Assembly: GCA_048882325.1 (NCBI GenBank)
Contig: JBHLRS010000005.1
Location: forward strand, 69,843 to 133,842
Direction: 5' to 3'
DNA from: Candidatus Thorarchaeota archaeon
GTDB lineage: Archaea; Asgardarchaeota; Thorarchaeia; Thorarchaeales; Thorarchaeaceae
DNA: 64,000 nt
Positions 1 through 21,492 of the stretch are shown in pieces; the stretch's first letter is position 1; each line of letters starts with the position of its first letter. The notes below the pieces were generated by a model that was not told where the DNA came from, did no database searches, and saw only the letters and a list, made by a program, of their open reading frames with translations. The position numbers and the translations under genes were made by a program.

Positions 1-120
1 CATCCAAGATTCTTCAACCTCCGCGGAGTATGTTCATTGATGAAGAATAGGTTTCTGGTCAAATTTATTCTCATAAATTCCGAGAGACTGAAATATACTC
101 AGGATGGTGACTTAGTTTGA

Positions 121-3100
121 GTGTTGTACGGGATGGATATCCGAATTAGAGGTGCCTGTGAGAACAATCTCAAGTCAGTGGATGTCGATATAGGTGATGG
201 TCTGACTGTGGTCACAGGTGTTAGCGGATCCGGAAAAACTTCTCTTGTCTTTGACACACTATATCATGAAGCAAGGAGGAGGTTCCTGGATGTCTTTCGT
301 TCCAGTGGTACACGCTTCAGAATGCCGCCTGCGGACGTTAGGTCAATCAATGGAATAGGACCAACCATTGCTGTTGGACAAAACCTTCTCAACCTTAATC
401 CAAATTCCACCTTAGCCTCTGCCTCCGGACTACATCCATTCTTTCGATTACTCTTTGCGAGATTCGGAACCCGCTCCTGTCTGACATGCGGCACGGACCT
501 TCAGGTACTTACAGAGGATGAGATTGTAGGAACAATCAGACAGAATTTGAAGAAGGGCGCAGTTGAGGTCTCGTCTATCCTCATCCATCAGGCAAAGGGG
601 AGTCACAAGACACTCTTAGAACTACTAGTTTCAGAATTCGATACAAAACAAGTCATTGTTGATGGAACACTGTGGAATCAGAGGAAACTGCCGCCAAACA
701 AACCTCATGATATCTCGATACTTATTGGTAGATTTGACCAAGACACAGACACCTCTGAGCTTAGAGAAGCAGTGCAGACAGCGAGAGCTCTTGGTGCTAA
801 TTCGGTCACTATCATAGATGACATGTCCAGCAGAACGGTATCAATGAGCAGTATCTGTGCTCAGTGTGGAACATGGTTTGGTGAGGTTGAACCAAAGCAC
901 TTTGGGATGAAATGTATTCACTGTGATGGCAAGAGATGTGAGAAGTGTAAAGATACGGGACTTCATGAGAAAGCAGCCTCTGTGAAATGGAAAGGGATGT
1001 CTTTTCCAGAGTTGATGTCTCTGTCAGTTGCTGAGACTAATCAGCTCTTTGCGGACACGGATTTGCCGTCTACAGCAAAACGCCTTCAGACAGAGATAAC
1101 ACGTCGACTTGATGCGTTGATGACTGTAGGGTTGGACTACATCCAGCTTAATCGCTCATCTCCAAGTCTCTCACGGGGGGAGTCTCAACGTGTACGACTT
1201 GCAGTTTCATTGACGAGTCGTTTGGAGGACATTGTGCATGTGTTAGATGAACCCACAATTGGGCAGCACCCAGCAGATGTAGAACGATTGATGCCATCGT
1301 TTAGGAAACTAATGGGCCCAGTGATTTTTGTTGAGCATGACAGGGTTGCAGCAGCGCAGGCGGACCGAGCTATCGACATTGGACCCGGCGCGGGTCAGAA
1401 GGGTGGTGAGATTGTCTTCACTGGCACACCCGATGAACTCTGGAATGCACCCACAACTACTGGACAATTCTTCAGTCTGGAGAAACGAGTACCTACCTTG
1501 GAACCACGCGATCCGCCAGAGGAGTTCATCTCAATCAAGAAGGCAGTTCAACATAATTTGAAGGCAATAGATGTGGAGATACCCATTAGTCGCCTCACTG
1601 TGATCACTGGAAGAAGCGGATCGGGAAAGAGCACACTTGTAGAACATGTTCTGGTACCATCTCTTGAGAAAGACCAACCCATTGGGTGCAAGGGTATCAT
1701 GGGCAGGAAACTCAGTCCTGTCTTAGTAGATCAAAAGCCAATTGGCAAGAACCCAAGATCTAATCCAGGGACCTACACAAAATTGTCAGACATTGTGAGA
1801 GACCTCTATGCATCTGAAACAGGTTTCTCCGCATCTCACTTCTCATTTAATCGACCAGAAGGTGCATGTCCAACTTGCAGTGGGATGGGGGCTGTTGAGG
1901 TCAAAATGAGATATCTCCCATCAATCTGGATAACATGTTCCGACTGTGAAGGAAAGCGATTCAAAGAGGAGGTCTTGGAGTCTCAGGTTAAGTTTGGAGA
2001 TCTTGAACTCTCGATTGCGGATTTCTACAATCTCTCAATAACCCAGGTTCATTCCATTCTGTCAGAGGACTCACGACTCAGCGAGAGTAAACGGAAGTCT
2101 GCAAAGAGTATCCTTGACGCCCTGGTCACAGTTGGTCTTGGATATCTGAAGTTGGGACAGAGCAGTCCGAGCCTTTCGGGAGGGGAAGCTCAGAGGGTCA
2201 AATTGACCAAGTATCTCGGAAAGAAGTCGCTAAAGACAAAGTTGCTTATTCTCGATGAGATTTCAACTGGACTCCACCCTAGAGACCTGTTTGGCCTCCT
2301 CACTGTGTTGGACAGGCTCGTCAAAGAAGGAGCTACGATCGTTGTCGTAGAACATAACACAGACATCATCAAGTCAGCAGATTGGATTGTTGATCTTGGC
2401 CCCCTAGGAGGTCCTGCTGGTGGAGAGGTTCTATACTCAGGCCCTCCATCCGGTCTCCGTGATATTGCAGAGTCATATACAGCACAGGCATTGAAGAACG
2501 AGGAAAAAGTGAAACCTCGGAAAAAGCCTGTGAAGACCAACATTATGACTGATCTCATCAGAATCAAGAAAGCACGAGCCAACAATCTCAGGAACATTAG
2601 TGTTGATATCAAGAAATCAAAACTCACAGTTGTCACAGGTATTTCAGGATCGGGAAAATCATCTCTAGTCAGGGACGTCTTACAGGCTGAAGCTGAAAGA
2701 AGGTTCTTGGAATCACTTTCAGTCTATGAACGTCAAGGAACCAGCGAAGGTCCAGAAGCACCTGTTGATAGCGTGAGTGGTCTTGGAGTATCTGTGGCTA
2801 TCTCATCGCGCAGACGACGAGGCGCTGGTTGGTGGGCAGTTTATGAGACTCGTTCCACAGTTGGTTCGGTAACTGAGATTTCGCAACAACTCAATGTCCT
2901 ATACGCAGCAATCGCAGATCGGCTCTGCATGAAATGTGGAACACAGATGGTCCGTTCTGAGAAGTGGTCATGTCAGAAATGTGGTTTGGAACAGCCTCTT
3001 GCTAGTCCACGACTGTTCTCGCCAGCAGTTTATTTCGCAGCCTGCGGGAAATGTAGTGGTGTTGGTCATATCAACACACCAGCGGTCGAGAAACTCATCG

Positions 3101-5022
3101 TCGCACCTGACAAACCACTGTGCAAAGGCGCGATGTATTCTCCCGGTTATTACCCTGGCAAGTATTTTTGTGATCCAAAAAGCGCAGCCGCTGGATTGTT
3201 GATCGCTTTAGGGGAAAAACATGGATTCGATCCACACTCGACTCCTTGGAACGAGATGTCTGATGAAGCAAGAGATGTGTTTCTCTTTGGAGATTCAGAA
3301 AAACTAGCATACTCGTATCTGGGAACACATCGGGGCAAGAGGACGAGGGTTTCTGGCAAGGGAGCATGGCGAGGTTTTTACCGACTTGTAAGTGACTGGG
3401 ATGTTGGTCAGACGTTTACAACTCGCATCACCTGCGAACTATGCAATGGAACGGGTCTCAAGCAGGAATATCTTTCCTTCAAAATAAAGGGTTTCAATGT
3501 GCATGAGATGAAGGACAAGACAGTGAGTGAGCTACGCGAAGTTCTGGAAGACGTCGCAGTTCCAGAGTCAGATGCATTCTATGTATCAGACAATCTACAG
3601 ACAGCCCTCAAGAGGTTGAGGTTCTTAGAGCAGGTGGGTCTTGGTTATATTCATCTGAACAGACAAGCCATAACCCTTTCAGCCGGAGAATCTCAACGCA
3701 TTGTCCTCTCTAGTCTGTTAGGGAGCGGTCTCACATCACTCACGATTCTCTTGGACGAACCATCTCGAGGAATGCATCCCTCTGAAATTAACAGTCTGGT
3801 TCAGGCACTGCAGGAGCTGAAGAAAGAAGGCAACACTCCAATTGTTGTTGAGCATGACCTAGGAGTTATCATGGCGGCTGATGAGCTGATTGACATGGGT
3901 CCAAGAGCTGGGACTGGGGGAGGGAGGATTGTTGCAATCGGCAGTCCTACGGATGTGGCAAAGGGAGATTCTATCACTGCAAAGTGGTTGAATGGAGATA
4001 GGAGGATTGACATATCCGACAATGTGAGAACACCAATTGCATGGATGAAAATCAAAGGAGCAAGGGGTAATAACCTCAAGAATCTGTCAATCGACATTCC
4101 TTTGGGAGTCCTTGTTGGTTTTTGCGGAGTGTCTGGTTCAGGAAAAAGCACACTTCTAATTGACACACTCGCTCGTGCATTAGCTCCGAAGAAGTTCACA
4201 ACCTCAGTCGCATATGAGGAAATTGAACCTGAGGATTATGACAGGATTTCTGATTCTCCTGACAGTGTAATAGTACTAGATCAAGGTCGGAGAGGAATTC
4301 GTTCACCAGGACAGGCTTTGGGAGTCCTGAAATCACTAGTTGATGTATATGCTGACAGTGAGGATGCTGTTTCCCTTGGTATGGACAAAAAAAGACTCTC
4401 TGAGCCTTGTTCATTGTGTGAGGGCACCGGGCGGCTGCGGACTGACCTTGGGTTTCTACCAACAGTGTATACGACATGTGAGGTATGTAGTGGAAGTGGT
4501 AGGTCCCCCGAAACTTGGGATGTGAAGATGTTTGGTGTTTCTCTTCCTGAATTAAACAGTCTGACTCTGGGAGAGATATACGAACTCTTCAAGTACGATG
4601 AGCGTATCGAGAAAAAACTCCGACCTGCACTCGACGTTGGACTTGACTATCTTGTACTCAGACAACCAAGTTGGACTTTGTCAGGGGGAGAGATTCAACG
4701 GTTGAAGATAGCACAGGAGTTGACCAAAAAGACTCAGAAAGGTGCACTCTTCATCCTTGATGAACCCACTGTTGGTCAGCACCTCGAGGATGTTAAACGT
4801 CTGATTGAAGTGCTGCAACGATTAGTGACTGCTGGCAACAGTGTTTTTGTCATAGAACATCACCCACATGTCCTTGCCGCGTGTGACTGGTTGATCGAGC
4901 TTGGTCCAAGGGGAGGTCCGAAAGGGGGATACGTGATCGCAGAGGGGAGTCCGTGGGAAATTAGGAAAATGATGACGCCTACAGCTCCATATATACAAGA
5001 GGTTCTGGAGGGATTGTTATGA
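121..5022 (+). CDS. uvrA: Double-length (tandemly fused) UvrA-family ABC ATPase
   Basis: Four Walker A motifs (GVSGSGKT, GRSGSGKS, GISGSGKS, GVSGSGKS), four ABC signatures (LSRGESQR, LSGGEAQR, LSAGESQR, LSGGEIQR), four Walker B (DEPT/DEIS/DEPS/DEPT), UvrA-type GAxxNNLK starts, CxxC zinc fingers and FSFN motif. Start may be ATG at 133. Confidence 0.92.
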   Translation: MLYGMDIRIRGACENNLKSVDVDIGDGLTVVTGVSGSGKTSLVFDTLYHEARRRFLDVFRSSGTRFRMPPADVRSINGIGPTIAVGQNLLNLNPNSTLASASGLHPFFRLLFARFGTRSCLTCGTDLQVLTEDEIVGTIRQNLKKGAVEVSSILIHQAKGSHKTLLELLVSEFDTKQVIVDGTLWNQRKLPPNKPHDISILIGRFDQDTDTSELREAVQTARALGANSVTIIDDMSSRTVSMSSICAQCGTWFGEVEPKHFGMKCIHCDGKRCEKCKDTGLHEKAASVKWKGMSFPELMSLSVAETNQLFADTDLPSTAKRLQTEITRRLDALMTVGLDYIQLNRSSPSLSRGESQRVRLAVSLTSRLEDIVHVLDEPTIGQHPADVERLMPSFRKLMGPVIFVEHDRVAAAQADRAIDIGPGAGQKGGEIVFTGTPDELWNAPTTTGQFFSLEKRVPTLEPRDPPEEFISIKKAVQHNLKAIDVEIPISRLTVITGRSGSGKSTLVEHVLVPSLEKDQPIGCKGIMGRKLSPVLVDQKPIGKNPRSNPGTYTKLSDIVRDLYASETGFSASHFSFNRPEGACPTCSGMGAVEVKMRYLPSIWITCSDCEGKRFKEEVLESQVKFGDLELSIADFYNLSITQVHSILSEDSRLSESKRKSAKSILDALVTVGLGYLKLGQSSPSLSGGEAQRVKLTKYLGKKSLKTKLLILDEISTGLHPRDLFGLLTVLDRLVKEGATIVVVEHNTDIIKSADWIVDLGPLGGPAGGEVLYSGPPSGLRDIAESYTAQALKNEEKVKPRKKPVKTNIMTDLIRIKKARANNLRNISVDIKKSKLTVVTGISGSGKSSLVRDVLQAEAERRFLESLSVYERQGTSEGPEAPVDSVSGLGVSVAISSRRRRGAGWWAVYETRSTVGSVTEISQQLNVLYAAIADRLCMKCGTQMVRSEKWSCQKCGLEQPLASPRLFSPAVYFAACGKCSGVGHINTPAVEKLIVAPDKPLCKGAMYSPGYYPGKYFCDPKSAAAGLLIALGEKHGFDPHSTPWNEMSDEARDVFLFGDSEKLAYSYLGTHRGKRTRVSGKGAWRGFYRLVSDWDVGQTFTTRITCELCNGTGLKQEYLSFKIKGFNVHEMKDKTVSELREVLEDVAVPESDAFYVSDNLQTALKRLRFLEQVGLGYIHLNRQAITLSAGESQRIVLSSLLGSGLTSLTILLDEPSRGMHPSEINSLVQALQELKKEGNTPIVVEHDLGVIMAADELIDMGPRAGTGGGRIVAIGSPTDVAKGDSITAKWLNGDRRIDISDNVRTPIAWMKIKGARGNNLKNLSIDIPLGVLVGFCGVSGSGKSTLLIDTLARALAPKKFTTSVAYEEIEPEDYDRISDSPDSVIVLDQGRRGIRSPGQALGVLKSLVDVYADSEDAVSLGMDKKRLSEPCSLCEGTGRLRTDLGFLPTVYTTCEVCSGSGRSPETWDVKMFGVSLPELNSLTLGEIYELFKYDERIEKKLRPALDVGLDYLVLRQPSWTLSGGEIQRLKIAQELTKKTQKGALFILDEPTVGQHLEDVKRLIEVLQRLVTAGNSVFVIEHHPHVLAACDWLIELGPRGGPKGGYVIAEGSPWEIRKMMTPTAPYIQEVLEGLL

Positions 5023-6056
5023 CTTGGGTTCCTCTTCTGCTAGCGGACAGGTCTCCCAGCCTTCGTTACTTGGTTCTCACGGAGCTACTAGGTCGAGATC
5101 CTGAGGATACAGAGGTTCAAGAGCTCAAGAAACTCAGAAGCGAGGATGCATTAATTGCCACACTCATTAGCCTTCAGAAAGAAAAAGGTAACTGGAAGAA
5201 TCTAGATCAAGCAGGGTATACTATTGGGGGTTCTGTGAGAGCAACAAGTGCAGCACTCATGCGACTAGGTTACCTAGGATTGGGAAACGACAATCCAGTT
5301 ATCGAGAGAGCTGCAGAGTATCTTTTCTCGAAGCAACGAAAAGATGGATCATGGCCACTCCCTGAGAGGGTCTCTGATTATGAATTTACACAAGGTCCTT
5401 ACACAATGACACCCGTCCAGACATCGATCCCACTTCTTGGACTAGTCATGTGTGGTTATGGTGGAGATCCACGTGCAGAGCTGGCCTTCGATTGGCTGAT
5501 GGAAAAACGCAATGATGACGGGACATGGCCTGCTGGTAAGGTGGGAGAGGTCAATGTGCGGATTGCAGGATATAGAAGACTCTCACATTCAAAATTAGGT
5601 TGTCGGACAAACACAACAAATGCACTCCTTTGTCTGGCATATCACCCAGTACGACGGAGAAGTTCAGAGGCACGTCAGGCACTTGATCACCTTCTTGGTA
5701 GGGAAACCCGAGAGCGAAACAACCTTGGATTCAATGTTGCGAGATATATCGGAGTGGAACCTCATCGGGGAGCTCTGACATATCATGCCAAGTTCGATCT
5801 CGCATTGATTCTTGATATCTGTTCAAAGGTCGGTGCCAACCGATCCGACCCACGAGTCGAGGACCTTATCGATTGGATTTTAGAGCAGCAAGGACAGTAC
5901 GGTCTGTGGGAGTACACACCACATCCGGAAGTTACTCGCTGGATTTCTTTTGACATACTTAGGACACTTGGCAAAATTGATGACTCAACGGATTGGATCA
6001 GCACTAAAAAGAGGAAACACTTTGCAGCTTATCCACACAAAAAGAGACGGTTCTAG
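5019..6056 (+). CDS. Prenyltransferase/squalene-oxidase-repeat (alpha/alpha barrel) protein
   Basis: Repeated Q/R-xx-DGxW motifs (LQKEKGNW, KQRKDGSW, KRNDDGTW, QQGQYGLW); ATGA overlap with uvrA stop. Confidence 0.7.
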   Translation: MTWVPLLLADRSPSLRYLVLTELLGRDPEDTEVQELKKLRSEDALIATLISLQKEKGNWKNLDQAGYTIGGSVRATSAALMRLGYLGLGNDNPVIERAAEYLFSKQRKDGSWPLPERVSDYEFTQGPYTMTPVQTSIPLLGLVMCGYGGDPRAELAFDWLMEKRNDDGTWPAGKVGEVNVRIAGYRRLSHSKLGCRTNTTNALLCLAYHPVRRRSSEARQALDHLLGRETRERNNLGFNVARYIGVEPHRGALTYHAKFDLALILDICSKVGANRSDPRVEDLIDWILEQQGQYGLWEYTPHPEVTRWISFDILRTLGKIDDSTDWISTKKRKHFAAYPHKKRRF

Positions 6057-6109
6057 TGCAATCATTTTTCAGAGATGGTGTCAGGTCAAATCAGGGAGAG
6101 CTCAACACA

Positions 6110-6427
6110 ATGAGTATTCAGGATAAGTTCGAAGACGAAATGAAGGATATCTGCTCAGAGTATGCAAACTTACTCAGGCAGAAGAAACTGATTGATGAGC
6201 AGTTGGAAACGCTTCATGACTATCTCGAGGTCACCATGCGTAAGTATGATAAAGATGAGTACGATGACCCAAAGATTCCAGTGGTAGTAGACAAGATAGT
6301 CTATACAAGTGAAAGGATGAGAAAGGGAGGGAAAATCAAACTCAAGGAGATACTAACTCCAAAACAATGGACTGAGATCTACAAAGAAAAGGAGGTTGTC
6401 AGTTACAGGGTTTCACTTCGAGAATAG
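6110..6427 (+). CDS. Small charged coiled-coil hypothetical protein
   Basis: ORF 6056-6427; ATG at 6110 after GGGAGAG is the likelier start; Lys/Glu-rich helix then beta-rich tail. Confidence 0.7.
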   Translation: MSIQDKFEDEMKDICSEYANLLRQKKLIDEQLETLHDYLEVTMRKYDKDEYDDPKIPVVVDKIVYTSERMRKGGKIKLKEILTPKQWTEIYKEKEVVSYRVSLRE

Positions 6428-6440
6428 AGAGATGGTGTTG

Positions 6441-6965
6441 ATGAGTGTTAATCGAATTGCAGAGCATCTTATCGACCAGTTCAACAGAAGTTGGAAGATG
6501 CTGCGACAAGCTATTGAAAACGTGCCAGAGGAGAAATGGACTGAACACGTCGAATCCATTGACGTGCCCTGGAACGAAACAAAAGGAATGAATGTCTGGT
6601 ATTTTTCAAATATCGTCTATCATGTCATACAAACGGTCGAGTTCTACGCTTTGGATGATCCTGATGACATGAGATGGGGACATAGGATTGGTGGGATTGA
6701 TTGGAAATCAGAGAGTCCAGAGGTGACATCATCGAAAATCAAGAAGAATGACATGCTTGAATATATGGAGGAAACTATGACATTCTTGAATGATAAATTG
6801 AGGTCCTTCTCAGAGGACGAAATGTTTGAGGCAGATGGGTTTAGTGGATGGCAAGACTCTCGTTTGATGAAGTTCGTCTATACTCTACGACACAGTATGT
6901 GGCACATAGGTGAACTTGGTAGGTCCTTGAGAAACTTTGAGTGTAATCGAATCACATGGCATTAG
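6441..6965 (+). CDS. DinB/YfiT-family four-helix-bundle metalloprotein
   Basis: N-terminal QFxxSWxMLxxAIxxVPEEKW, first His in IVYHVIQ and C-terminal RHSMWHIGEL (HxxxH). Confidence 0.8.
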   Translation: MSVNRIAEHLIDQFNRSWKMLRQAIENVPEEKWTEHVESIDVPWNETKGMNVWYFSNIVYHVIQTVEFYALDDPDDMRWGHRIGGIDWKSESPEVTSSKIKKNDMLEYMEETMTFLNDKLRSFSEDEMFEADGFSGWQDSRLMKFVYTLRHSMWHIGELGRSLRNFECNRITWH

Positions 6966-7095
6966 ATATTAGATGATGTGCTAGGTACAATCATGGATTG
7001 ATATCATTTCCCTTCTTTCTCTTCATAAACAGGCACACAAGTAGATACTAGGTTTGATAAGGAGTCTGAGGTTAAGTTTGATGAGGAGAAATAAT

Positions 7096-8169
7096 ATGGC
7101 GAGATATGAGTTGGAGAATAAAGCAGACTTTGTCCCAGCTTGGATATCATATCTCTCAACAGCAACAGGGATTCTGAAGGCGCTGGGAGTGAAAACGGAT
7201 CTTGTTGATGTTGGTGGTTACACTGGGTATGCATTTCATCTTAACACTGCAGAACACTCAACGTGTCCATCCGCTCCAACTGTAGCTCCCTTTGACAAGT
7301 TCTCTGAAGGTTTGGAATCATTCGGGTGGAAAATAAAGCAAACTTGGGACAGACCAGGCAAGGATTATAGCCCAAGTGACAATGAAAAGCAGAAAGAGAG
7401 AGCAAGGAACTACTTTTCAGAGGTTAAAGACACTATCAGGAAAACTGGAAGACCTATCGGGATCTGGGGGATACCTGAGATACCGGAGTTTGGTATTGTA
7501 AATGGATTTGATGATGATAATTACATTGTGAGCACATTTCGAAGTCTACCACACATTCCTGTGGATGATAGTCCAATACATCACTTGAATCTAAATGCGC
7601 CAGGTGGTCTCTTCAAGATGGTCTTCGGTGATTCCTTTAAGGCTAGGGGTGATGTGATTCGAGATAGAGAAGCTGTTGCTCGAGGTATTTCCATAGCCAA
7701 GGGTCTGGAGAAAGTTGAGGGATACATTTCAGGACCAGAAGCATTTGATGACTGGGCAAATACATTAGAAGAAGGGATTGTCGCTGGGTCAGAGAAAGAA
7801 AGCAAGGATATGAGGGGAGCAACCCAACTTATGTACCATGGAAACGCGTATGTAGCGCAGTGTACACAAGAAGGTCTTAATCTTGCGTCTGTTTTCCTAG
7901 AACGATTAGCGGATAGACATAGGAACCATTCATTTAGCAAGAACCTAGCCAAAGCCTCAATTGAATATAGGAAAGCTGCAGTTGCGATGCAGGATTTCAC
8001 TGAGTTATTCCCATTCAGCCATGATAAAGACTGGAAGCCTGATGAGTTCCCAGATGATAAAAAGCAGAAAGGAGCTAGAAGTCTAAGGAATGCCAAACCT
8101 CATGTTGAATCAGCTATTCAGCATATGGAAGATGCACTGAAGATGTGGAGTAAGAAACCTCTCAATTGA
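7096..8169 (+). CDS. Hypothetical protein, BtrH-like (papain-like N-domain plus helical C-domain)
   Basis: GYTGYAF...CPSAP, PEFGIVNGFDD and SGPEAFDDW segments resemble BtrH-type proteins; start ATG 7096 after GAGGAG. Confidence 0.5.
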   Translation: MARYELENKADFVPAWISYLSTATGILKALGVKTDLVDVGGYTGYAFHLNTAEHSTCPSAPTVAPFDKFSEGLESFGWKIKQTWDRPGKDYSPSDNEKQKERARNYFSEVKDTIRKTGRPIGIWGIPEIPEFGIVNGFDDDNYIVSTFRSLPHIPVDDSPIHHLNLNAPGGLFKMVFGDSFKARGDVIRDREAVARGISIAKGLEKVEGYISGPEAFDDWANTLEEGIVAGSEKESKDMRGATQLMYHGNAYVAQCTQEGLNLASVFLERLADRHRNHSFSKNLAKASIEYRKAAVAMQDFTELFPFSHDKDWKPDEFPDDKKQKGARSLRNAKPHVESAIQHMEDALKMWSKKPLN

Positions 8170-8287
8170 TACTCTCTTGAATGCGCAAAGGATTCAGGTA
8201 CCTCTGAATGTCCTCAATCAACTCGGTTTTACTGAGAGAGGTAAACTTTACACAGAGTTCTTGCAAGCGTCGATAGGTGGTAAGCCA

Positions 8288-9073
8288 TTGAGTGATGCTT
8301 CAATCAGAATAGCTCCAGCAGAACTTGAAGATGCTGAAACTCTTACAGACATCTGTATCAGAGCGTTTCATAGTGATATTGATTTTGGGACAGATGGGGA
8401 AGGTGGCCCCCCGGGTTACGACTCTGTTGATTGGAACGGACAACGAATCGTAGGGAAATTTGTTGACTACTACAAAATTCTGCTTGATGACACCATTGTT
8501 GGAGGATTCATCTCAGGCTGGAGGAGGACAGGATATAATGTCTGCGAGCGAATATATGTTGATCCTGAAACACAGAGAGAAGGAATAGGTAGTCGCACTT
8601 TCGAACTCATATGGGACCGCTATCCAAGAGCTCAGAGGTGGACACTTGGGACTCCGGAATGGAACACTCGAACTAAGAACTTCTATGAGAAGGTCGGGTT
8701 CACTCAGATTGGATTCACATATGATGTACCAGACTGGAGAGGTCGTTTTTATGAAAAGATCGTGTCTAGTGAGAGTCCCCTACAGGTCACAGCAGACCTT
8801 GAGGAGGGGATGAATAGAGTAGTCATTGATGGGGAGATAAGAAACCTGTCATCGACAAGAGAGGTCCGCTCGAGGTCTGGAGATCCGCTCCAAGTAGCAG
8901 AAGCAGAGTTGGTCGATGATGAAGGCTCAATATCGCTTGTGCTTTGGAATGAGCATATACGTCAGGTCAATTCTGATAGAGTGCGAGTGGAAAGCGGGTT
9001 TGTCAAGAGGTATAGAGACAAATTGCAATTGAGCATAGGAAAGTGGGGTCTAATTATCTCATTAATTTCATAA
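8288..9073 (+). CDS. GNAT acetyltransferase fused to SSB/RPA-type OB fold
   Basis: GNAT motif A (IYVDPETQREGIGS) and motif B (NTRTKNFYEKVGF); C-terminal ~95 aa (DLEEGMNRVVIDGEI...VAEAELVDDEGSISLVLWNE...RVESGFVKRYRDKLQLSIGKWG) match the crenarchaeal SSB/RPA OB pattern. TTG at 8288 after GGTGGT is the probable start (ORF opens at 8177). Confidence 0.8.
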   Translation: MSDASIRIAPAELEDAETLTDICIRAFHSDIDFGTDGEGGPPGYDSVDWNGQRIVGKFVDYYKILLDDTIVGGFISGWRRTGYNVCERIYVDPETQREGIGSRTFELIWDRYPRAQRWTLGTPEWNTRTKNFYEKVGFTQIGFTYDVPDWRGRFYEKIVSSESPLQVTADLEEGMNRVVIDGEIRNLSSTREVRSRSGDPLQVAEAELVDDEGSISLVLWNEHIRQVNSDRVRVESGFVKRYRDKLQLSIGKWGLIISLIS

Positions 9074-9111
9074 TGAGTGACAAAGAATAGAGGATTGTGA
9101 GCTGATCATAA

Positions 9112-10341
9112 ATGTTTGAGGTACCGATTGAAAAGGCTCGGAGATTCATCCTTGATGTACAAGGTCTCAGAACTTCAAAACCCTGTAAGTCTGTGATGGA
9201 TGTAGCTAATCGTATTCACAACATCCAGATAGATACAATATCTGTAGTTTCACGTAGCCATAACCTTATCACCTTCAATCGATTCCCGAACTACAAGGAA
9301 GGAGATATCTGGAAGCTTCAGAAAGAGGGAAAGCTATTCGAGTATTGGTCCCATGCGGCATGTCTAATGCCGATGGAAACATATCCGTTCTACGCTTGGA
9401 GGAGGTCATTCTTCCCAGAGGAACTATGGGATTCTTTCAGAAAGTGGGGTGAAGAGAATAAGGAGGTCATTGAAGAAGTATACAAGAAAGTGAAGAAAGA
9501 GGGTGTAATCAATAGCGCCTCTGTAGGAGAACGCAAGACAAAGTCAAGCGGATGGTGGGATTGGAAGATTGAGAAACGAGCTCTTGAGTATCTCTATACT
9601 AATGGAAGACTAATGGTTGCATATAGAAATAACTTCCAGAAGCATTATGACTTAGCAGAGAGGGTTATCCCAGCAGGTATCAGCACAGAACCTCTGACGG
9701 ATGATGAAGCTGCAGAATTTCTTTTGGACACAATATTGGGTTCCCTGGGTCTTGGCAGTCAGATGGATATGAAGTCGTATCTCGGTAGACTTCCAGCTAG
9801 GAAACTATGGAATGGCAAAAAGTCAGAGATAGAATCATTTCTTGAGCAAAAAATGAATGAGGGACGCATTGAGGAGGTCTCAATCGAAGGCATGAATGAA
9901 CGATTCTTTATTCATAAGAATCATGAGAAACGATTGAGGTCGATTGCTATCTTACCACAAGAAGAGGACCCAGTTAAGTTTCTGAGTCCCTTCGATAATA
10001 TAGTCCGTGAGAGACACTATCCTGGGCAGATGTGGAATTTTGAATACAAGATTGAATGCTATGTACCTGAACCTCGGCGAATCTATGGGTACTTTGTTCT
10101 ACCGATTCTTGATGGGAATAATCTTTCTGGCAGGATGGATGCAAAAGTGCATCGTAACACTGGGGTTCTAGAGATCAAGTCTTTGTATTTAGAAAAAGAA
10201 ACCATCCAGAAGGAGATGGGCCTTGATCGTTTCAGAAGAGGTGTTGTTGACTTCGCAGAGTTCCATTCATGCGAGGAAGTAAAGGTGGGTAAAGTGAGTC
10301 CGAGGAAGTCAACTAACACTGTCCGTTCACTCTTCACTTGA
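9112..10341 (+). CDS. ycaQ: YcaQ/AlkZ-family (HTH_42) DNA interstrand-crosslink glycosylase
   Basis: IQIDTISVVSRSH (QxD catalytic motif), FEYWSHAAC, GWWDWK, LSPFDN, YKIECYVP...RIYGYFVLPIL. Confidence 0.9.
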   Translation: MFEVPIEKARRFILDVQGLRTSKPCKSVMDVANRIHNIQIDTISVVSRSHNLITFNRFPNYKEGDIWKLQKEGKLFEYWSHAACLMPMETYPFYAWRRSFFPEELWDSFRKWGEENKEVIEEVYKKVKKEGVINSASVGERKTKSSGWWDWKIEKRALEYLYTNGRLMVAYRNNFQKHYDLAERVIPAGISTEPLTDDEAAEFLLDTILGSLGLGSQMDMKSYLGRLPARKLWNGKKSEIESFLEQKMNEGRIEEVSIEGMNERFFIHKNHEKRLRSIAILPQEEDPVKFLSPFDNIVRERHYPGQMWNFEYKIECYVPEPRRIYGYFVLPILDGNNLSGRMDAKVHRNTGVLEIKSLYLEKETIQKEMGLDRFRRGVVDFAEFHSCEEVKVGKVSPRKSTNTVRSLFT

Positions 10342-10344
10342 GGA

Positions 10345-11028
10345 CTATATCTTCTTAGAACCTTCACGAGCGACTAACTTGGTCATTCTAGCTTGATTCT
10401 TTTCATAGTACGACCTAATTAGTTCCGGGTCACGCTTACTCAACTCGCGTAAAACCCATCCAGCAGCTTTGCCCACAAAGAACTCGTCATCCGATATGTG
10501 GGGAGTGACTGCCTCGAGAATCTTGTTGTTGTATTCTGGTTTATACTGGGACTTCAATGCAAGATGAAGGAATGGTAAGACTGAGGCTCTTCGGCGCCAG
10601 AAGTTGTCAGAAACTCGCCAAGATCGTAAGACAGCCTCTACTCTTTCATCACGTAAAATCATAGAACCAATAGTAGGAGAACAAAGTGGATCAATTAATC
10701 CCCAGGTGTCAGCATCACTGACCCACTTGTCTGCTAAGTCTAGAGCTGTCTCAATGGACCCTTTCTTCGCGTAAACCTTCAAGATGTCAATTGCTGCAAG
10801 TCTAATTTCAAACGATTCATCCATCCAGAGAGCTCTCATAATGCTAGGGAGTTCTCCAAGGCCCAAACCTTTGATGATTCTTTTCACTATCCTGTGTATC
10901 TCAGGAAGTTCCACTCCTATGAAGTTCAGTGAGGAGGTCTTCATGTATTCTGCGATCTTTTCTTTGCGTTCTGCCTTTCCTAGAGTTCTGAGTTCCTTGA
11001 CGATATTTTTCACAATTTCTCCAGACAT
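10345..11028 (-). CDS. AlkD-like HEAT-repeat DNA alkylation repair protein
   Basis: FIGVxLP, DTWGLIDPLC, SDNFWRRRAS, DDEFFVGKAAGWVLRELSK motifs. Confidence 0.85.
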   Translation of the reverse strand: MSGEIVKNIVKELRTLGKAERKEKIAEYMKTSSLNFIGVELPEIHRIVKRIIKGLGLGELPSIMRALWMDESFEIRLAAIDILKVYAKKGSIETALDLADKWVSDADTWGLIDPLCSPTIGSMILRDERVEAVLRSWRVSDNFWRRRASVLPFLHLALKSQYKPEYNNKILEAVTPHISDDEFFVGKAAGWVLRELSKRDPELIRSYYEKNQARMTKLVAREGSKKI

Positions 11029-11140
11029 AGTCAATCAATCTACGTGGTTGGATTTAATCATAATCATGGATATGTTCGATTCCGATATCCAACAGAAATT
11101 GAATTAAATGTCGAAAACATCATTCTCAGCGAGGATTATC

Positions 11141-11731
11141 ATGACAGAGATTCCCATGCCAGCAGGTGATTCATATGAACAGCCAGCTCCAAAGAGCTCG
11201 ACTTCCTCTGATTGTTGCAAGATTGGGTTAATCATATGTGTCATTCTGATTATCGGAATGATTTTGATTGCTGTAATTTTCTTGGGAAGTTTTGCTAGTT
11301 GGTTTGGCGGTTTTACTGGAACAACCTACGAAACTAGAACCATTGCGAGCAGTACACAAGATGTCCAACTCTTCAGCATTTATTATGCAGAGGAGTTTAG
11401 TGTGTCTAGCCTTGAAACGCAGACCACCACAGCTCCAGATATTGACTTTAACATTGACGTGCTTTCAACAGGCTCCGATGTAGTGACGGTCACAATTCAC
11501 TTTGCAATCTATGAAATAGATCAGACTACGTTCGATTCAATACCTACATGGTCAGGTGTTGCGCCATACCTCATGGACTCGGGAAATTATACTGACAACG
11601 CATCAGACTTCTTTAATCTAAACAATTATGCTGACACATATGTTTGGGTTCTTTGGTTTGAAGCTTCATCTAAGACATCTACATGGAGCGTTGATATCGA
11701 CCTGACACTTAGATACAACTGGAATCTATAG
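11141..11731 (+). CDS. Single-pass membrane protein with extracellular beta-rich domain
   Basis: Cys pair and one long hydrophobic helix near the N-terminus, Ser/Thr-rich beta-sandwich-like remainder with NxT sequons. Confidence 0.65.
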   Translation: MTEIPMPAGDSYEQPAPKSSTSSDCCKIGLIICVILIIGMILIAVIFLGSFASWFGGFTGTTYETRTIASSTQDVQLFSIYYAEEFSVSSLETQTTTAPDIDFNIDVLSTGSDVVTVTIHFAIYEIDQTTFDSIPTWSGVAPYLMDSGNYTDNASDFFNLNNYADTYVWVLWFEASSKTSTWSVDIDLTLRYNWNL

Positions 11732-11741
11732 TCATCAACAA

Positions 11742-11767
11742 AGTATGAGGAGGACACTCCTCATACT
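11742..11767. terminator. Perfect 11-bp hairpin between convergent genes
   Basis: AGTATGAGGAG-gaca-CTCCTCATACT between the stop at 11731 (+) and the stop at 11767 (-). Confidence 0.6.
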
Positions 11768-12800
11768 CATGCTTTTTCTAGAAGATATCTCATATCAGCT
11801 TTCTTGAATCTCAAGAATGCTCTCGTTCCAAATTCTCGATTGAGTTCGGTTCCATATGAACTGAGTAGCTTTAGAGAATCAAGACCTCCAAGATCCCTGT
11901 GGAAGGATACATGCAGATAGTAACCCGGTTGTTTTGCTCCTCGTAATTGTTCTCGCAACCAACCAACAGGTGTGATCAGTTCAGATCTGTCAACGGGTGC
12001 AAGTTTCAATTCTCCATAGATTCCAACCTTTGATAGTATTCCCAACCATCTTGTCCAAACGCCCTCAGTTGTCGTAAATCCGGAGGTTCCTTTCTTATGA
12101 GTATAGATCGTGATGGAATCCACAGTGAGAGATTCTCCATCTAGCTTGCCATAAGCAGCCAAGATCCATAATGTTCGATTTAACAGAGAACTTCGTCCTT
12201 CAAGCATCTCCTGTCCCGCTATTGTATCTATGTCTGAAATCCTTAGACTTGATGTAAGAATCTGCGAAAGAACATTGTGAAGTGTTTTGTATTTCATATA
12301 CTTCTTTTTTACATCAGGAAACGGCACAATCTTTGGGTGTTTCTCCTCGACAGTTTTGACCTCTTGAATTTGACTAGGACTCAGATTCTCTTTGATATCA
12401 TCAAGTGTCTTCATGCCCTCAAAGATTCTTATGTATGCTTGATATTTGTCATCAGGAATATGGTTACCTATTCTTCTCTCTGCATCCGCACGACTGTTGT
12501 TGATGTTCTGTATCATGATCTTGTCACATAGATATCGTGAGCAATAGGCACAGTTTCGCACCTCCGTGCAGAACAACTCCGAAGGAAATTATGTACACCC
12601 ACATCCTTTGATAGATTCTCATTGGGAGTCTGACATCCATGGCACGGATTCTTAGTTGGTGAAAACCCTACATACTTCTTCACATCTTCAACATAGGAAG
12701 CCCATTCATCTTCACTTTGTTCTCTCCGAACCCACACACCCCATGGGCAGCTGGAACACATATTGCCACATTTGCTAATGACTGGCTTCACTGTTATCAT
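11767..12800 (-). pseudogene. DUF3795-type Cys-rich protein, frameshifted
   Basis: ORF 12513-12800 gives KCGNMCSSCP...CHGCQ...SCSARRC; the continuation NCAYCSRYLC is in a different frame (ORF 11767-12576); break near 12555-12565. Confidence 0.7.
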
Positions 12801-12909
12801 AATAACATAGGCAGACTTGCTAATTAGTTCATTCTCTTATTGCGCTGAATTAATTGCTTATAACTGTTCAAACAAAAATACAATCTGGAGAACCTCTGGG
12901 GATATTTAG

Positions 12910-13680
12910 GTGTCAAATGGTATTCATATTCAGACTCAGGGCCTTTCAAAGAATTTTGGTCCTGTAGTTGCTCTGAAGAACCTCGACCTTTCTGTACGAA
13001 AAGGTAGTGTCTTTGGTTATCTTGGTCCAAATGGAGCAGGGAAGACAACAACTGTCAGAATTCTGTCCGGACTGTTGAAACCCACAAGTGGGGATGCTAT
13101 TGTCTGTGGGTTTGATGTACATAATGAACGAAATGACATAAAGAGAGTGACTGGTCTCTTACCAGAATCACCCGGTCTCTACTCTAAATTGTCAGCAGTT
13201 GAGTTTCTTGAGTTCATAGGAGCATTGAACAATCTGAGTGGGGAGTCACTTCACAAACGTATAGAATCGCTTCTCGGAATTTTGGGACTCGAAGGAAGAC
13301 AGAATGACCTGCTTGAGAGCTACAGTAGTGGTATGAAGCAAAAAGTGCTAGTTGCTTCAACTGTGCTTCATGAGCCAGAGTTGGTGTTCCTTGATGAACC
13401 AACATCACGCCTTGATCCTGCAGCAAGCGTACTTGTTAGAGAAATAATCTTGGCAATGGCTGAAGAAACTAACACGACCTTCTTCATCTGTACTCACATG
13501 ACGGACTTCGCTGAGGATGTATGTGAAATCATTGGAATCCTGAATGAAGGTGTACTAACAACTCTCGGAGCCCCCGATGAAATCATTGAGCAGACTAAAG
13601 CCAAAGACCTTGAGGATGCATACCTCAAGATTGTTGGCGGAGAGATAGACCGTGAGACGCTTCTCAGCTGGAGGCAGTGA
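12910..13680 (+). CDS. ABC-2 type exporter ATP-binding subunit
   Basis: GPNGAGKTT, YSSGMKQK, LDEPT, CTH switch. Confidence 0.92.
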   Translation: MSNGIHIQTQGLSKNFGPVVALKNLDLSVRKGSVFGYLGPNGAGKTTTVRILSGLLKPTSGDAIVCGFDVHNERNDIKRVTGLLPESPGLYSKLSAVEFLEFIGALNNLSGESLHKRIESLLGILGLEGRQNDLLESYSSGMKQKVLVASTVLHEPELVFLDEPTSRLDPAASVLVREIILAMAEETNTTFFICTHMTDFAEDVCEIIGILNEGVLTTLGAPDEIIEQTKAKDLEDAYLKIVGGEIDRETLLSWRQ

Positions 13681-13681
13681 T

Positions 13682-15328
13682 TTGGTCAGGGTCTGGCAAG
13701 CTATTGCTAAGGCTGAGTTTCTTGTAAGAACTGTCAAGCTCCACAAATCGCGAAAGGTTCTATACCCAATGGTAATTGGAATCGCACTAGCGTGGGGATT
13801 GTTGCTAGTTCCTCGAATCTTGGGATTCTTTTTCGCAAGATATGGGGACGCCTTTGAAGCTTTGTTAGCGACATCATTTCCAGGATTGCTCAGAACAATT
13901 ATGATGGTCATCTGGATGTTCATTCTGATTGTTCCGATTTCGAATAGTCTTGAGAATGTTAAAATTGGTCAATGGGAGATCCTCTTCAGCAACAATGTGA
14001 AGACAAGAGACCTCCTCTTTGGCACCTTTGTGGGAAGAATCCCAGTCTATGGCATTTTCGTAATCGCACTAGCACCTATTGTGGTGTCACCATTTGTTTA
14101 TGCATATAATGTGTCAATGACAGGTCAGTTGATGATGTACTTGGTCATATTCGTATTCTCGATTATAACAATATGGATCTCAACTGTGTTCAGTACTGCA
14201 ATCCATGCAAAAATAGGGAGATCACCACGGGGTGATGATATTGGAAAGGCATTAAGCTGGGCTCTTGTTCCTCTTGTTGTACTCCCTGCAATGGGATCAA
14301 TGTATTGGATGAATAGTGTTGTATCACTCTTCAATCTAAATGCGTCCATGATACTCCCTTCAACTTGGTGTGCAGATATTCTGACTTGGATAGCCATGCA
14401 TACAGGAAATCTTAGACCATCCTCGGTATTGAACCTAGGACTCTATTGGTTTGCTGTAAGTCCTATTGTTGACCTGATATTATTAGGGGTATTCTCGCTT
14501 GCTGTTCTTGTGCTTGGTTTCAAAAGTGCAGGCAAAGTGTTTGAATATGGGGCTAGTCCAGGAAGTCAAAAGATCGCTCGCGCAGGACCAGAGAACCTCT
14601 TCATCAGAGGAGTTCGCAGAATATTTGGAAGGAAATTTGGAACGATAGTCGCTACTTCATTCAAAGACTACGCTCGAAAACTGCAGAACATTGCAAAGCT
14701 CTCATATGGGCTATTCTTGGCTTTTCTCATACCTTTACTCCTTGGATTTGGTCCACTCTCTGCAACAATCGATGATCCGATATTCGTTCCAGTTATGACA
14801 TCGCTTATGATGGGTATGATGTTGGGCATTTTCTCTGGAGTCATGTTTGGCGGAGTGGGATTACTTGACAGTCGTGATCAGCTTTGGATTCTGAAAAGCG
14901 CACCTAATGGTGTGCCAAAGTTCGTCGTAGCCCGAGTGCTTTCTTACATGATGGTCGGTCTACCATATGCCATTCTACCAGCAATGTTCACAGGGTACTT
15001 GCTCAATTTTGCTTTCTTCGACATAATCCTCATGTCTGGATTTGTTTACTCGATTGTTTTGGGCGGAATCTTTGTTGGTGTAGGTGTCACTGCTGCCAAT
15101 CCCTCATATGAGGATACATCCAGTGGTGCGTTCATAATCAATCAAATCGTCACCGTCATTGTCCTTATGGCATGTGTCTTTTTTTCATTAGTACAAGGTA
15201 TCTTAATTGCCATCAATCAAGGCGTTTTTGGACCTGCAATGATCATGTCCAGTATTCCAACACCTATCGTCGGATTTGTCGTATTGATGTTGGGACTGAT
15301 ACGACTGAATGTATCGGAGGTGGACTGA
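13682..15328 (+). CDS. ABC exporter permease (about 12-14 TM)
   Basis: Polytopic hydrophobic protein with two-halved layout directly after the ATPase; TTG at 13682 likely start. Confidence 0.8.
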   Translation: MVRVWQAIAKAEFLVRTVKLHKSRKVLYPMVIGIALAWGLLLVPRILGFFFARYGDAFEALLATSFPGLLRTIMMVIWMFILIVPISNSLENVKIGQWEILFSNNVKTRDLLFGTFVGRIPVYGIFVIALAPIVVSPFVYAYNVSMTGQLMMYLVIFVFSIITIWISTVFSTAIHAKIGRSPRGDDIGKALSWALVPLVVLPAMGSMYWMNSVVSLFNLNASMILPSTWCADILTWIAMHTGNLRPSSVLNLGLYWFAVSPIVDLILLGVFSLAVLVLGFKSAGKVFEYGASPGSQKIARAGPENLFIRGVRRIFGRKFGTIVATSFKDYARKLQNIAKLSYGLFLAFLIPLLLGFGPLSATIDDPIFVPVMTSLMMGMMLGIFSGVMFGGVGLLDSRDQLWILKSAPNGVPKFVVARVLSYMMVGLPYAILPAMFTGYLLNFAFFDIILMSGFVYSIVLGGIFVGVGVTAANPSYEDTSSGAFIINQIVTVIVLMACVFFSLVQGILIAINQGVFGPAMIMSSIPTPIVGFVVLMLGLIRLNVSEVD

Positions 15329-15331
15329 GGG

Positions 15332-16831
15332 ATGAGAGTTTCGAAGTGGCAGATATCATTCCTCCTCATCATCTTGGTGTCGTTGGCATCAATGCCTATA
15401 GGTGCAAATAATCATCAACAAACCACCACGACCAGATCTGCTTTTACTGTAAGTGAGGAAATCACTAATGTTCCATATGTTTGGCAAGAGGTCAATGGAT
15501 TTTGCCTTCCGTCGTCACTTTCAATGGTCCTTCAGAGCATGGGACTTGATCTTAGTCTCTATGATATTCTCGCGGCATCTGGTACTGGTTTCTCAGTAGT
15601 ATCGATTAGCGTTGATGAATCGATGACGCTCCTACCCGGAGTATTGGTGCGTCAGATTCCATGGCTAGAGTTCCTCACGGACCTTTATGGTTTGGAGTTG
15701 CAGATTTATCTGAATTCAAGCACAGATTATGGGGAAAACGCAATGCAGATTCTGGCTTCTTTGAGTTCTGAGATCATCGACTATGCAAATTCTGACTTGA
15801 TGGCTCCTCTTGATGTTATGCGTGATTCAATTGATTCTGGATATCCTCTCACAATCGGTGTTGATACATATTATTTACCTCCAGCTGATTGGAACATCAT
15901 CAGAGACTATGTTGGACCACTGCAACCTGGGGGTATAGGACATGCCATCGTGATAGTTGGGTATAATGACACGTCTGCTACTGTTAGTGTTTTCGACCCA
16001 GGAGTTGGTTTGTTAGAACCATATGTTGGATATCCTAATGATGGTCGTTGGAACTACACTATGCCTTATTCCATGTTGGACAACGCTTGGAAAGGTGCGG
16101 GTTATGCAACATTCAGATTATCAAATGTTACTGGTAAAGCGGACAACTTTGAGAAAAGATTAGCATCCTACATCTCACAGAGATTATTGGGAAATCGATC
16201 CTCGTATTTTGAGGGGCTCGAGAACTTTTTCTATCTCGGGACTGGCGCAGACGCCTTCAGAGGGATGGGACTTGACATGAATCTAGAAGCAATAAAGGAC
16301 TACTGTACCTACTACCTCGAAGCAGACAAGCCAACAGCAATCAGACTTCTTGGTCACAACCTCGAAGCTATGATGACGATGCAATACATGGCGTATCGGA
16401 GTGCACTCGACTCACTTCCAGATCTCCTTCCATCATATGACCTGACTGAGTTCATCGATGCCGCGTCAGAAGCACTTCCACATATGGAAGTGCTCAGTCA
16501 TAATGCTTCGATGACAAGTGTGATCACCATTGTTCCACGGAATACCCTCTTGTACAACACTTTCTTCGATATGGCCTCCACATTTGAATCATCACACGAT
16601 CTTGATGGCTCGATTGCTGAACATTCAGAGGAGTTGGATGAAATAGCAGCTCATCTCATTTCTATTGCAGATGCATGGAAGACAGCTGGCCAAGCATTGG
16701 CCAGTGAAATTGCGGAATCGGAGCCACTTCCATTCAATAATCTCATTGTAGTCATAGGTGGGGGAGCTGTTGTGTTGATTATTGCCATAGTGTTTGCTAC
16801 GAGAAGAAGAAATGCCGTCAAGGAATGTTGA
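15332..16831 (+). CDS. Secreted, C-terminally anchored C39/papain-like cysteine peptidase
   Basis: Signal peptide; VPYVWQEVNGFCLPSSLSM (Gln, Cys), GHAIVIVGY (His), VFDP (Asp); C-terminal TM plus RRR. Confidence 0.75.
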   Translation: MRVSKWQISFLLIILVSLASMPIGANNHQQTTTTRSAFTVSEEITNVPYVWQEVNGFCLPSSLSMVLQSMGLDLSLYDILAASGTGFSVVSISVDESMTLLPGVLVRQIPWLEFLTDLYGLELQIYLNSSTDYGENAMQILASLSSEIIDYANSDLMAPLDVMRDSIDSGYPLTIGVDTYYLPPADWNIIRDYVGPLQPGGIGHAIVIVGYNDTSATVSVFDPGVGLLEPYVGYPNDGRWNYTMPYSMLDNAWKGAGYATFRLSNVTGKADNFEKRLASYISQRLLGNRSSYFEGLENFFYLGTGADAFRGMGLDMNLEAIKDYCTYYLEADKPTAIRLLGHNLEAMMTMQYMAYRSALDSLPDLLPSYDLTEFIDAASEALPHMEVLSHNASMTSVITIVPRNTLLYNTFFDMASTFESSHDLDGSIAEHSEELDEIAAHLISIADAWKTAGQALASEIAESEPLPFNNLIVVIGGGAVVLIIAIVFATRRRNAVKEC

Positions 16832-20139: not shown

Positions 20140-20601
20140 GTGGATAGGATGAGAGACCAATCCGAAGAGAGTGCTATAGAATCTGAACTCAGGGGAAATA
20201 CTCTCCGTGTATATTGGTACATGCTCTCACAGAATGAACCAGTTGGTGTCAGGGAGGTCCAGAGGGCCATTGGAATGTCCAGTCCATCTGTTGCCAGTCA
20301 CCATCTCTCAAAACTAGTTACATTGGAGCTCGTGGAGAAGAGGTCTGACAACTCATACCATGTGAGTCGGGTAGTCAAGGTGGGAGTATTGAAGAACTTC
20401 ATCGATTTTCGGGGGAGATTTCTTCCTCGCTATGTGTTCGTCGCGATATTCTTTTCCGCATTCACACTTTCCTATGTTGCGCTTTCTTACATAGCTCAGC
20501 CAGGTATTTACGACAGGCTCATCGCCATTGCGATTGGCGTTATAGGAGCACTATTCGCATGGATCGAAAGTATTCGGCTCTGGAAGCTGAGGCTCTCATG
20601 A
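20140..20601 (+). CDS. Membrane-tethered winged-helix (ArsR-like) transcription regulator
   Basis: GVREVQRAIGMSSPSVASHHLSKL HTH followed by two TM helices. Confidence 0.8.
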   Translation: MDRMRDQSEESAIESELRGNTLRVYWYMLSQNEPVGVREVQRAIGMSSPSVASHHLSKLVTLELVEKRSDNSYHVSRVVKVGVLKNFIDFRGRFLPRYVFVAIFFSAFTLSYVALSYIAQPGIYDRLIAIAIGVIGALFAWIESIRLWKLRLS

Positions 20602-20643
20602 TAATCAGTAAACCTCATGAGGAGGTTCCTCTCACTATTCTCC

Positions 20644-21438: not shown

Positions 21439-21492
21439 ATTGTTAAGTTTCAACACGAACTAAGAAACACCGCGTTTAGGATGTGGAGACAA

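Follow-up and report, generated by a model that had tools for sequence, protein, structure and literature searches.

A candidate genus-specific island of DNA-damage genes at a plastic chromosomal site in a Thorarchaeota archaeon

A candidate island of separately inherited modules

The stretch of DNA analysed here, referred to as the window, comprises 64,000 nt from a Candidatus Thorarchaeota archaeon (contig C5:69843-133842; 3.6-Mb assembly, 93% complete), and at positions 121-11034 it carries seven co-oriented genes (g1-g7) and a convergent eighth (g8), mostly concerned with DNA damage. This cluster is best explained, with a probability of about 0.5, as a genus-specific island of DNA-damage genes in which independently inherited modules occupy a plastic chromosomal site. 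The tandem UvrA gene g1 and the toroid gene g2 form a self-contained pair, and the genes of an AlkD-family and a YcaQ-like DNA glycosylase (g8 and g7) form a recurrent pair which, besides g1+g2, is the sole part of the cluster supported beyond close kin.

In the proposed mechanism, the first module would be the convergent AlkD and YcaQ-like pair, excising alkylpurines or crosslinked N7-guanine adducts and passing the resulting abasic sites to base excision repair. The second module would be the single-chain asymmetric UvrA with its toroid, which would serve as an accessory sensor of lesions and has a single UvrB dock and a single insertion domain. The third would be a variable cargo, here consisting of a DinB/YfiT-fold metalloprotein, a protein with a sensor-type domain, g3 and a GNAT-OB fusion. 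The gene identities, domain losses, catalytic residues and conserved linkages are directly established, and they suggest that the modules may cooperate against alkylating, crosslinking or electrophile stress; any substrate named here is likewise a predicted one.

Gene content was called from the open reading frame (ORF) listing together with Pfam and NCBIfam scans, and the gene calls and domains agreed with those of an earlier sequence-only reading, in which the same genes were taken as a genotoxin-defence cluster. The gaps between g1-g7 are, in order, -4, -1, 13, 130, 7 and 38 nt, the 130-nt gap preceding g5 is pyrimidine-rich, and the convergent stop codons of g7 and g8 are separated by 3 nt. 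The G+C content is 0.47 in g1-g2 and 0.42 in the rest.

Gene order in relatives and the variable slot

Linkage was assessed in loci fetched from relatives around the tandem UvrA, AlkZ (g7-type) and AlkD genes, with cluster genes marked by tblastn, and in a metagenome survey that retrieved 80 loci with g2, of which 73 were informative (at least 250 nt of upstream sequence). Linkage beyond close kin was found separately for g1+g2 and for g7+g8, and it was not found for the eight genes as a set; outside the genus, only UvrA+toroid and AlkD+AlkZ survive, and they are never together. The genes g3, g4, g5, AlkZ and AlkD were present only in the six metagenome loci with g2 of at least 75% identity, and none of them was found in the DNA retrieved for the other 74 loci, which lie outside the genus and include 26 with at least 5 kb of downstream DNA.

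Gene order is highly labile inside the genus. The closest relative has g4, AlkD and the flanking genes g9 and g11 in this order after g2, and no match to g3, g5, g6 or AlkZ was obtained by tblastn on either contig. In other same-genus loci the ABC genes stand directly after g2, and elsewhere AlkD is located upstream of g1 and AlkZ lies 9 kb off or on another contig; in several of the rearranged loci, the UvrA module is still beside AlkD or g4. The sequence-only reading had tied its resistance module to a gene order conserved in relatives, and that expectation was largely contradicted by the absence of the eight-gene order outside the genus and its lability inside.

Genomes that lack the UvrA module show the order g10, AlkD, AlkZ, Ras-like GTPase and CopA. 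In the genome of the window, the Ras-like GTPase and copper genes are located just upstream of the window, and approximately 11 kb (DinB_2, a 146-aa ORF, DUF4332 and g1-g6) lie between them and AlkZ. The genes for the DinB_2 protein (E 1e-8), the 146-aa ORF and the DUF4332 protein are found at C5:68031-69849 (6032-7850 of fetched locus L139), between the Ras-like GTPase gene and UvrA. Two DinB-fold genes are thereby present within 8 kb, and the genome as a whole has only 9 DinB_2 matches. Around AlkZ/AlkD, the genes found in relatives are of the NosD/beta-helix, CBM96, TPR-nitrilase or condensation-domain type, and the slot is therefore regarded as a hotspot with mixed cargo. Among the hallmarks of mobile elements, no tRNA genes were found, and no integrase domain was found except for a weak SAM-like match.

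The tandem UvrA and its toroid partner

Gene g1 (121/133-5022, + strand, probable start ATG at 133) encodes a tandem UvrA of 1633 aa, which matches the NCBIfam model TIGR00630 with 1275 bits in four stretches and contains two UvrA-like halves in a single chain. Walker A, signature and Walker B motifs are each present four times. In the N-half, residues 6-261 are aligned with residues 3-267 of Thermotoga maritima UvrA, UvrB-binding domain included, and Pfam UvrA_inter is located on residues 131-231. After position 267 the alignment resumes at UvrA position 382, indicating that the N-half is without the insertion domain. The C-half skips UvrA 129-239, that is, the UvrB-binding domain, and retains the insertion domain. 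The CxxC pairs are located at 120/246, 265/273, 583/606, 936/951, 975/1105 and 1430/1453, and those flanking each lost domain have collapsed to 8 (265/273) and 15 (936/951) residues apart. As judged from these alignments, g1 is an asymmetric single-chain UvrA with reciprocal domain loss between its halves.

Both halves are nearest to class I UvrA (TIGR00630; 3pih, 2r6f, 9gxk), with 516 and 540 bits against 3pih compared with 398 against UvrA2 (2vf7) and 365-373 against Ecm16 (7sh1), and g1 shares with this class all four ATPase sites as well as the zinc modules. Class I proteins carry a UvrB-binding and an insertion domain in each protomer, whereas g1 fuses two protomers, of which the N-half is without the insertion domain and the C-half without the UvrB-binding domain; in addition, its gene always precedes the toroid gene and does not adjoin uvrB. 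In contrast to DrrC, Ecm16 and Deinococcus radiodurans UvrA2 (PMC10192343), the whole g1 protein keeps one UvrB-binding domain, forms one long chain, has lower scores against 7sh1 and 2vf7 than against class I, and has no antibiotic cluster near its gene. The likeness to DrrC and Ecm16 that had been proposed for this protein is therefore not borne out, and g1 is not of the drug-resistance class. A 'class III' UvrA is reportedly treated by Goosen and Moolenaar 2008; nothing relevant was obtained from literature searches for UvrA proteins that are duplicated or of 'class III', or for the MADS system.

Gene g2 (5019-6056, + strand, ATGA overlap with g1) encodes a 345-aa alpha/alpha toroid with SQHop_cyclase repeats (Pfam PF13243). 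Its AlphaFold model is also an alpha/alpha toroid (mean predicted local distance difference test, pLDDT, 87.5) and bears a loose likeness to class II terpene cyclases and thioester domains (Foldseek template-modelling score, TM, 0.3-0.48), and no DxDD or DxD[DE] motif is present in the sequence.

The C-terminus of a tandem UvrA was directly upstream of g2 in 72 of the 73 informative metagenome loci, g1 and g2 were adjacent in every genome locus fetched, and the pair is retained down to 49-56% identity. Outside the genus the pair is flanked by genes for methionyl-tRNA synthetase (MetRS), HAD, ferritin, Nramp, phosphoribosyltransferase, methylase or a peptide ABC transporter. In 9 of 43 loci, the tandem UvrA is preceded by a canonical-type uvrA whose end is 22-37 nt away, and no UvrB gene was found beside the UvrA module in the 102 loci searched. 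The array of uvrA, tandem uvrA and toroid gene is seen in a low-G+C lineage (L090, L092, L093, L098, L099, L100, L125, L126, L024).

A promoter-like element of 21 nt that includes a TATA-like box, TTCCGAGAGAYTGAAATATAC, was located at 78-98 (+ strand), approximately 35 nt before the start codon of the UvrA gene. It is near-identical in 7 same-genus loci despite differing upstream genes, and no other copy was found in the genome at up to 3 mismatches. Because the element is conserved across the genus while the upstream genes vary, and is unique in the genome, the UvrA module appears to bring its own promoter. The element was also considered as a shared operator, and this was rejected: its 12-nt core gave 59 one-mismatch hits, about the number expected by chance, and none of these was upstream of another cluster gene. 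Control of the LexA type was likewise not seen.

Housekeeping excision repair genes elsewhere in the genome

A canonical UvrA of 979 aa is encoded at C15:30862-33624, a second uvrA is split by contig ends (C59:12-1238 and C10:1-429), and uvrC is located on contig C10. As the sequence-only reading had stated, neither uvrB nor uvrC is present in the 64 kb of the window, and uvrB was not found anywhere in the 93%-complete assembly. In the relatives, uvrB was detected above the family cut-off in 39 of 61 genomes, adjoining two tandem canonical uvrA genes. Because relatives carry this uvrB-uvrA-uvrA block, the missing uvrB is likely an assembly gap. Since canonical uvrA and uvrC sit elsewhere and relatives pair uvrB with canonical uvrA, g1 is regarded as an accessory gene and not as the housekeeping copy. 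The search for a separate canonical uvrABC thus located uvrA and uvrC, and the earlier view that g1 does not belong to housekeeping nucleotide excision repair is supported by its position as an extra paralogue.

The AlkD and YcaQ-like glycosylase pair

Glycosylases of the AlkD and YcaQ-like families remove N3/N7-alkylpurines as well as N7-guanine adducts that are bulky or crosslinked, leaving abasic sites that enter base excision repair. Archaeal crosslink glycosylases are, to our knowledge, almost unstudied.

Gene g8 (10345-11034, - strand, convergent with g7) encodes an AlkD-family glycosylase with HEAT-like repeats, matching PF08713 with 166.8 bits (E 7e-49, cut-off 21). Its TWGLID and GWVLRE segments align to the catalytic residues of AlkD, and the Trp/Asp/Trp set is kept, which places g8 in the AlkD family; the residue numbering W109/D113/W187 follows Mullins et al. 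2015. With Bacillus cereus AlkD and Streptomyces YtkR2, g8 shares PF08713, an alignment to AlkD structures (E 4e-24) and the equivalents of Trp109/Asp113/Trp187; unlike YtkR2, it is not located in a yatakemycin-type cluster.

Gene g7 (9112-10341, + strand) encodes an HTH_42 DNA glycosylase, matching the AlkZ-like family PF06224 with 166 bits (E 2e-48, cut-off 25.9) and carrying a QID motif within the block NIQIDTISVV. YcaQ-like (YQL) HTH_42 proteins are defined by a Q-aliphatic-D motif and are reported never to occur in biosynthetic clusters (PMC9040887), whereas the AlkZ-like (AZL) self-resistance glycosylases carry a (Q/H)-aliphatic-Q motif and are often found in such clusters. With PF06224, a QID motif and no cluster, g7 belongs to the YcaQ-like and not to the AlkZ-like type, and a caveat to this effect in the sequence-only reading was correct. 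With Escherichia coli YcaQ and actinobacterial YQL proteins (PMC7367128, PMC9040887), g7 shares PF06224, the Q-aliphatic-D motif, the single-domain architecture and the location outside a cluster; it differs from them in being archaeal and convergently paired with AlkD, and its activity is a prediction from sequence. YQL enzymes are characterised by the removal of 7-methylguanine and the unhooking of crosslinks formed by nitrogen mustard, activities that g7 may share.

Pfam searches for HTH_42 and DNA_alkylation, covering 301 Asgard genomes, detected HTH_42 in 164 and DNA_alkylation in 207 of them. A 2022 survey (cited with PMC7367128 and PMC9040887) had counted only 12 HTH_42 proteins from archaea. 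A second HTH_42 (AlkZ-like) paralogue is present in the genome of the window at C57:10459-11493.

Within the genus, about 15 genomes have AlkD and AlkZ at most 5 kb apart, whether the UvrA module is present or not; in other genera of the same family the two genes are on different contigs. In seven genomes of another Asgard family (f12, genus g21), convergent AlkD-like and AlkZ-like genes were observed 0.1-2.5 kb apart; their identity to g8 and g7 is only 22-31%, yet the QID motif and the Trp/Asp/Trp set are kept. In two of the four loci fetched from this second family, genes for a PadR regulator, a BtrH_N/DUF4872 protein and a 204-aa ORF stand beside the pair (L134 3085-5478, L136 7482-10508), and one locus of the family also carries a DinB_2 gene near it. 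A PadR-BtrH_N pair was also noted in the genome of the window, 58 kb away (C5:10057-11836). A further candidate for an independent AlkD-AlkZ lineage, contig C77 of genome G167 (L135), which is binned in another Asgard family, was rejected: its AlkZ and AlkD are 58-67% identical to those of the window, Ras and CopA genes adjoin them here too, and for this reason it is probably a misbinned Thorarchaeota contig. The recurrent AlkD/YcaQ-like pair offers a concrete two-enzyme system.

Accessory genes of the variable cargo

Gene g3 (6056-6427, + strand) encodes a charged protein of 123 aa with no family match; it is present only in some same-genus loci, where a 140-aa ORF often precedes it.

Gene g4 (6396/6441-6965, + strand; 174 aa from the probable start M16) encodes a DinB/YfiT-fold protein. 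Its Pfam matches are sub-threshold, both for DinB_2 (E 0.011, 16.6 bits against a cut-off of 24.8) and for DUF1706 (E 0.0014). The AlphaFold model (pLDDT 82) is a four-helix bundle, all top Foldseek matches of this model are DinB/YfiT proteins (probability 1.0, TM 0.6-0.68), and H61/H151/H155 are invariant in 16 homologues. By its modelled four-helix bundle and its His triad, g4 is assigned to the DinB/YfiT superfamily, as had been proposed from the sequence. It shares the fold model and the His triad, the usual metal triad, with members such as YfiT, the bacillithiol/mycothiol S-transferases and DR0053, and differs from them in remaining below the Pfam cut-offs and in belonging to a tiny, lineage-restricted family, with only 27 proteins in a collection of 5.8 billion. 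A ClbS-like (DUF1706) identity is doubtful: the profile match to ClbS is weak (E 0.14), ClbS ranks 8th by fold, and the His triad of g4 argues against it, as ClbS is without the metal motif.

Gene g5 (7054/7096-8169, + strand, probable start ATG at 7096) encodes a protein of 357 aa with a sensor-type domain and no family match. Outside Thorarchaeota, most of its homologues form the C-terminal domain in regulators of the ArsR/SmtB type, and g5 is a stand-alone copy. The domain is fused to an N-terminal ArsR/SmtB helix-turn-helix (HTH) in Hodarchaeales, Thermoplasmatota, Methanofastidiosia and Methanomassiliicoccales (P0328-P0373), and a profile search of the PDB with the g5 family matched the ArsR HTH part alone. 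This domain architecture points to an undescribed regulator effector domain without a Pfam family. An assignment to BtrH_N/DUF4872, for which the ESM Atlas gave a lead of 0.86-0.87, was rejected as unproven, as the hhalign probability for a match to the BtrH_N proteins from the second family was about 1%.

Gene g6 (8177-9073, + strand) encodes a fusion of a GNAT domain with an SSB-type OB fold. The GNAT part matches PF13508 (40.4 bits against a cut-off of 27, E 4e-10); the OB part matches NCBIfam PRK06461 (E 5e-13) and reaches 21 bits in Pfam against a cut-off of 24, that is, it remains below the curated cut-offs. The gene is found at this position only in the genome of the window; of 27 same-genus genomes, 25 carry the family at other positions, and a second copy is present on contig C3 in the genome of the window.

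Weighing of the explanations

Several points weigh against an island of cooperating modules. The 130-nt gap before g5 may divide the array into two transcripts, and no operator is common to the cluster genes. UvrA and the glycosylases are linked in one genus only, a pattern that common descent may account for with no need of selection, and the NosD/beta-helix, CBM96, TPR-nitrilase and condensation-domain genes in the same slot resemble a general hotspot.

A possible, though less likely, alternative is that the genes adjoin each other for historical reasons alone, the UvrA-toroid pair and the other cargo having landed in a recombination hotspot next to AlkZ/AlkD in the ancestor of the genus, with no functional tie to the glycosylases. 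This is consistent with the absence of linkage outside the genus, the unrelated cargo occupying the same slot in relatives, the private promoter element of the UvrA gene and the G+C content of 0.47 in g1-g2 against 0.42 in the rest. However, the cargo here is strongly biased to DNA-damage and DinB-fold genes, the UvrA module is kept beside AlkD or g4 in rearranged same-genus loci, and the pairing of AlkD with AlkZ is observed in two families.

A dedicated, co-regulated multi-layer resistance operon directed at one class of natural products that bind or alkylate DNA is considered unlikely; in it, UvrA would displace bound drug, adducts would be unhooked by the glycosylases, and the compound would be detoxified by the DinB and GNAT proteins. 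Tight co-orientation with stop/start codon overlaps speaks for such an operon, but the eight genes are not together outside the genus and are shuffled inside it. The gene content would also fit, with four lesion- or single-stranded-DNA-related genes, DinB-fold and GNAT genes, and an ABC ATPase with a permease in the conserved flank; however, the GNAT-OB gene is at this site only in its own genome, the UvrA keeps its UvrB-binding domain and is nearer to class I than to Ecm16 or UvrA2, and g7 is of the YcaQ-like type, reported never to occur in biosynthetic clusters (PMC9040887). The weak similarity of g4 to ClbS, the colibactin self-protection protein, is offset by a His triad that is absent from ClbS, and the PadR, BtrH_N and DinB_2 genes beside some AlkD-AlkZ pairs of the second family are set against the lack of a biosynthetic cluster in the scanned ORFs and of a shared operator. 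From the genotoxin-defence reading, the accessory UvrA and the recurrent AlkD/YcaQ-like pair are thus retained, while eight-gene conservation, a DrrC/Ecm16-type UvrA, a biosynthetic cluster among the scanned ORFs and a shared operator were not found. A purpose-built anti-genotoxin operon is not shown, and the eight genes are a shallow mosaic and not a conserved system.

An anti-phage or anti-plasmid defence island with the ABC ATPase as a foreign-DNA sensor is highly improbable, as the variable site, a DNA methylase upstream in one distant locus and the PADLOC matches of the g1 ATPase (nucleotide-binding) domains to mad3 (E 1e-115) and mad8 (E 1e-55) are outweighed by the identification of g1 as a full UvrA by equivalog models, by neighbours that are bona fide repair glycosylases, by the other nine proteins matching no PADLOC model with no other defence component nearby, and by the absence of a nuclease, integrase or tRNA and of recurrent methylase/nuclease partners.

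The genus-specific island of separately inherited modules is therefore preferred. A wider version of it is more speculative and rather improbable, namely an undescribed Asgard electrophile/alkylation-damage response island, in which a convergent AlkD and YcaQ-like core, retained or formed anew in at least two families, would recruit DinB-fold metalloenzymes and sensor/regulator domains and, in one Thorarchaeota genus, also the UvrA-toroid sensor, joining base excision to one-sided nucleotide excision on crosslinks and bulky adducts. The island reveals where the fused UvrA is placed in this genus, and the linkage is too shallow to give the module a genotoxin-resistance role. It is also a reason for caution, in that a thematically attractive neighbourhood without conserved gene order should not be taken for an operon.

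Surroundings downstream of the cluster

The cluster is followed by a flank that is syntenic genus-wide (11108-15328), comprising g9 encoding a membrane protein, the uncharacterised g10, g11 encoding an ABC ATPase and g12 encoding a polytopic permease. The ABC ATPase and permease genes occupy 12910-15328, and together with a C39-like gene they span 12910-16831.

Downstream ORFs were scanned over 11108-36695 of the window, and no polyketide synthase (PKS), nonribosomal peptide synthetase (NRPS) or comparable biosynthetic genes were found among them. The scanned genes include those for an ABC transporter, DUF3160, prolyl oligopeptidase, an MtrH-like protein, arylsulfotransferase, KAS III, an acyl ligase and a Liv-type transporter. 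A row of three genes at 20140-22335 encodes a small HTH protein of the TrmB/ArsR type, a nitroreductase and an Fpg/Nei glycosylase (21481-22335), the last being a further repair gene at a distance of 10 kb from the cluster.

Within 12910-16831, the permease has approximately 10-12 membrane helices and the following protein is Peptidase_C39_2-like. The ABC ATPase-permease pair is duplicated in some relatives, in two of which it is located directly after the UvrA-toroid pair.

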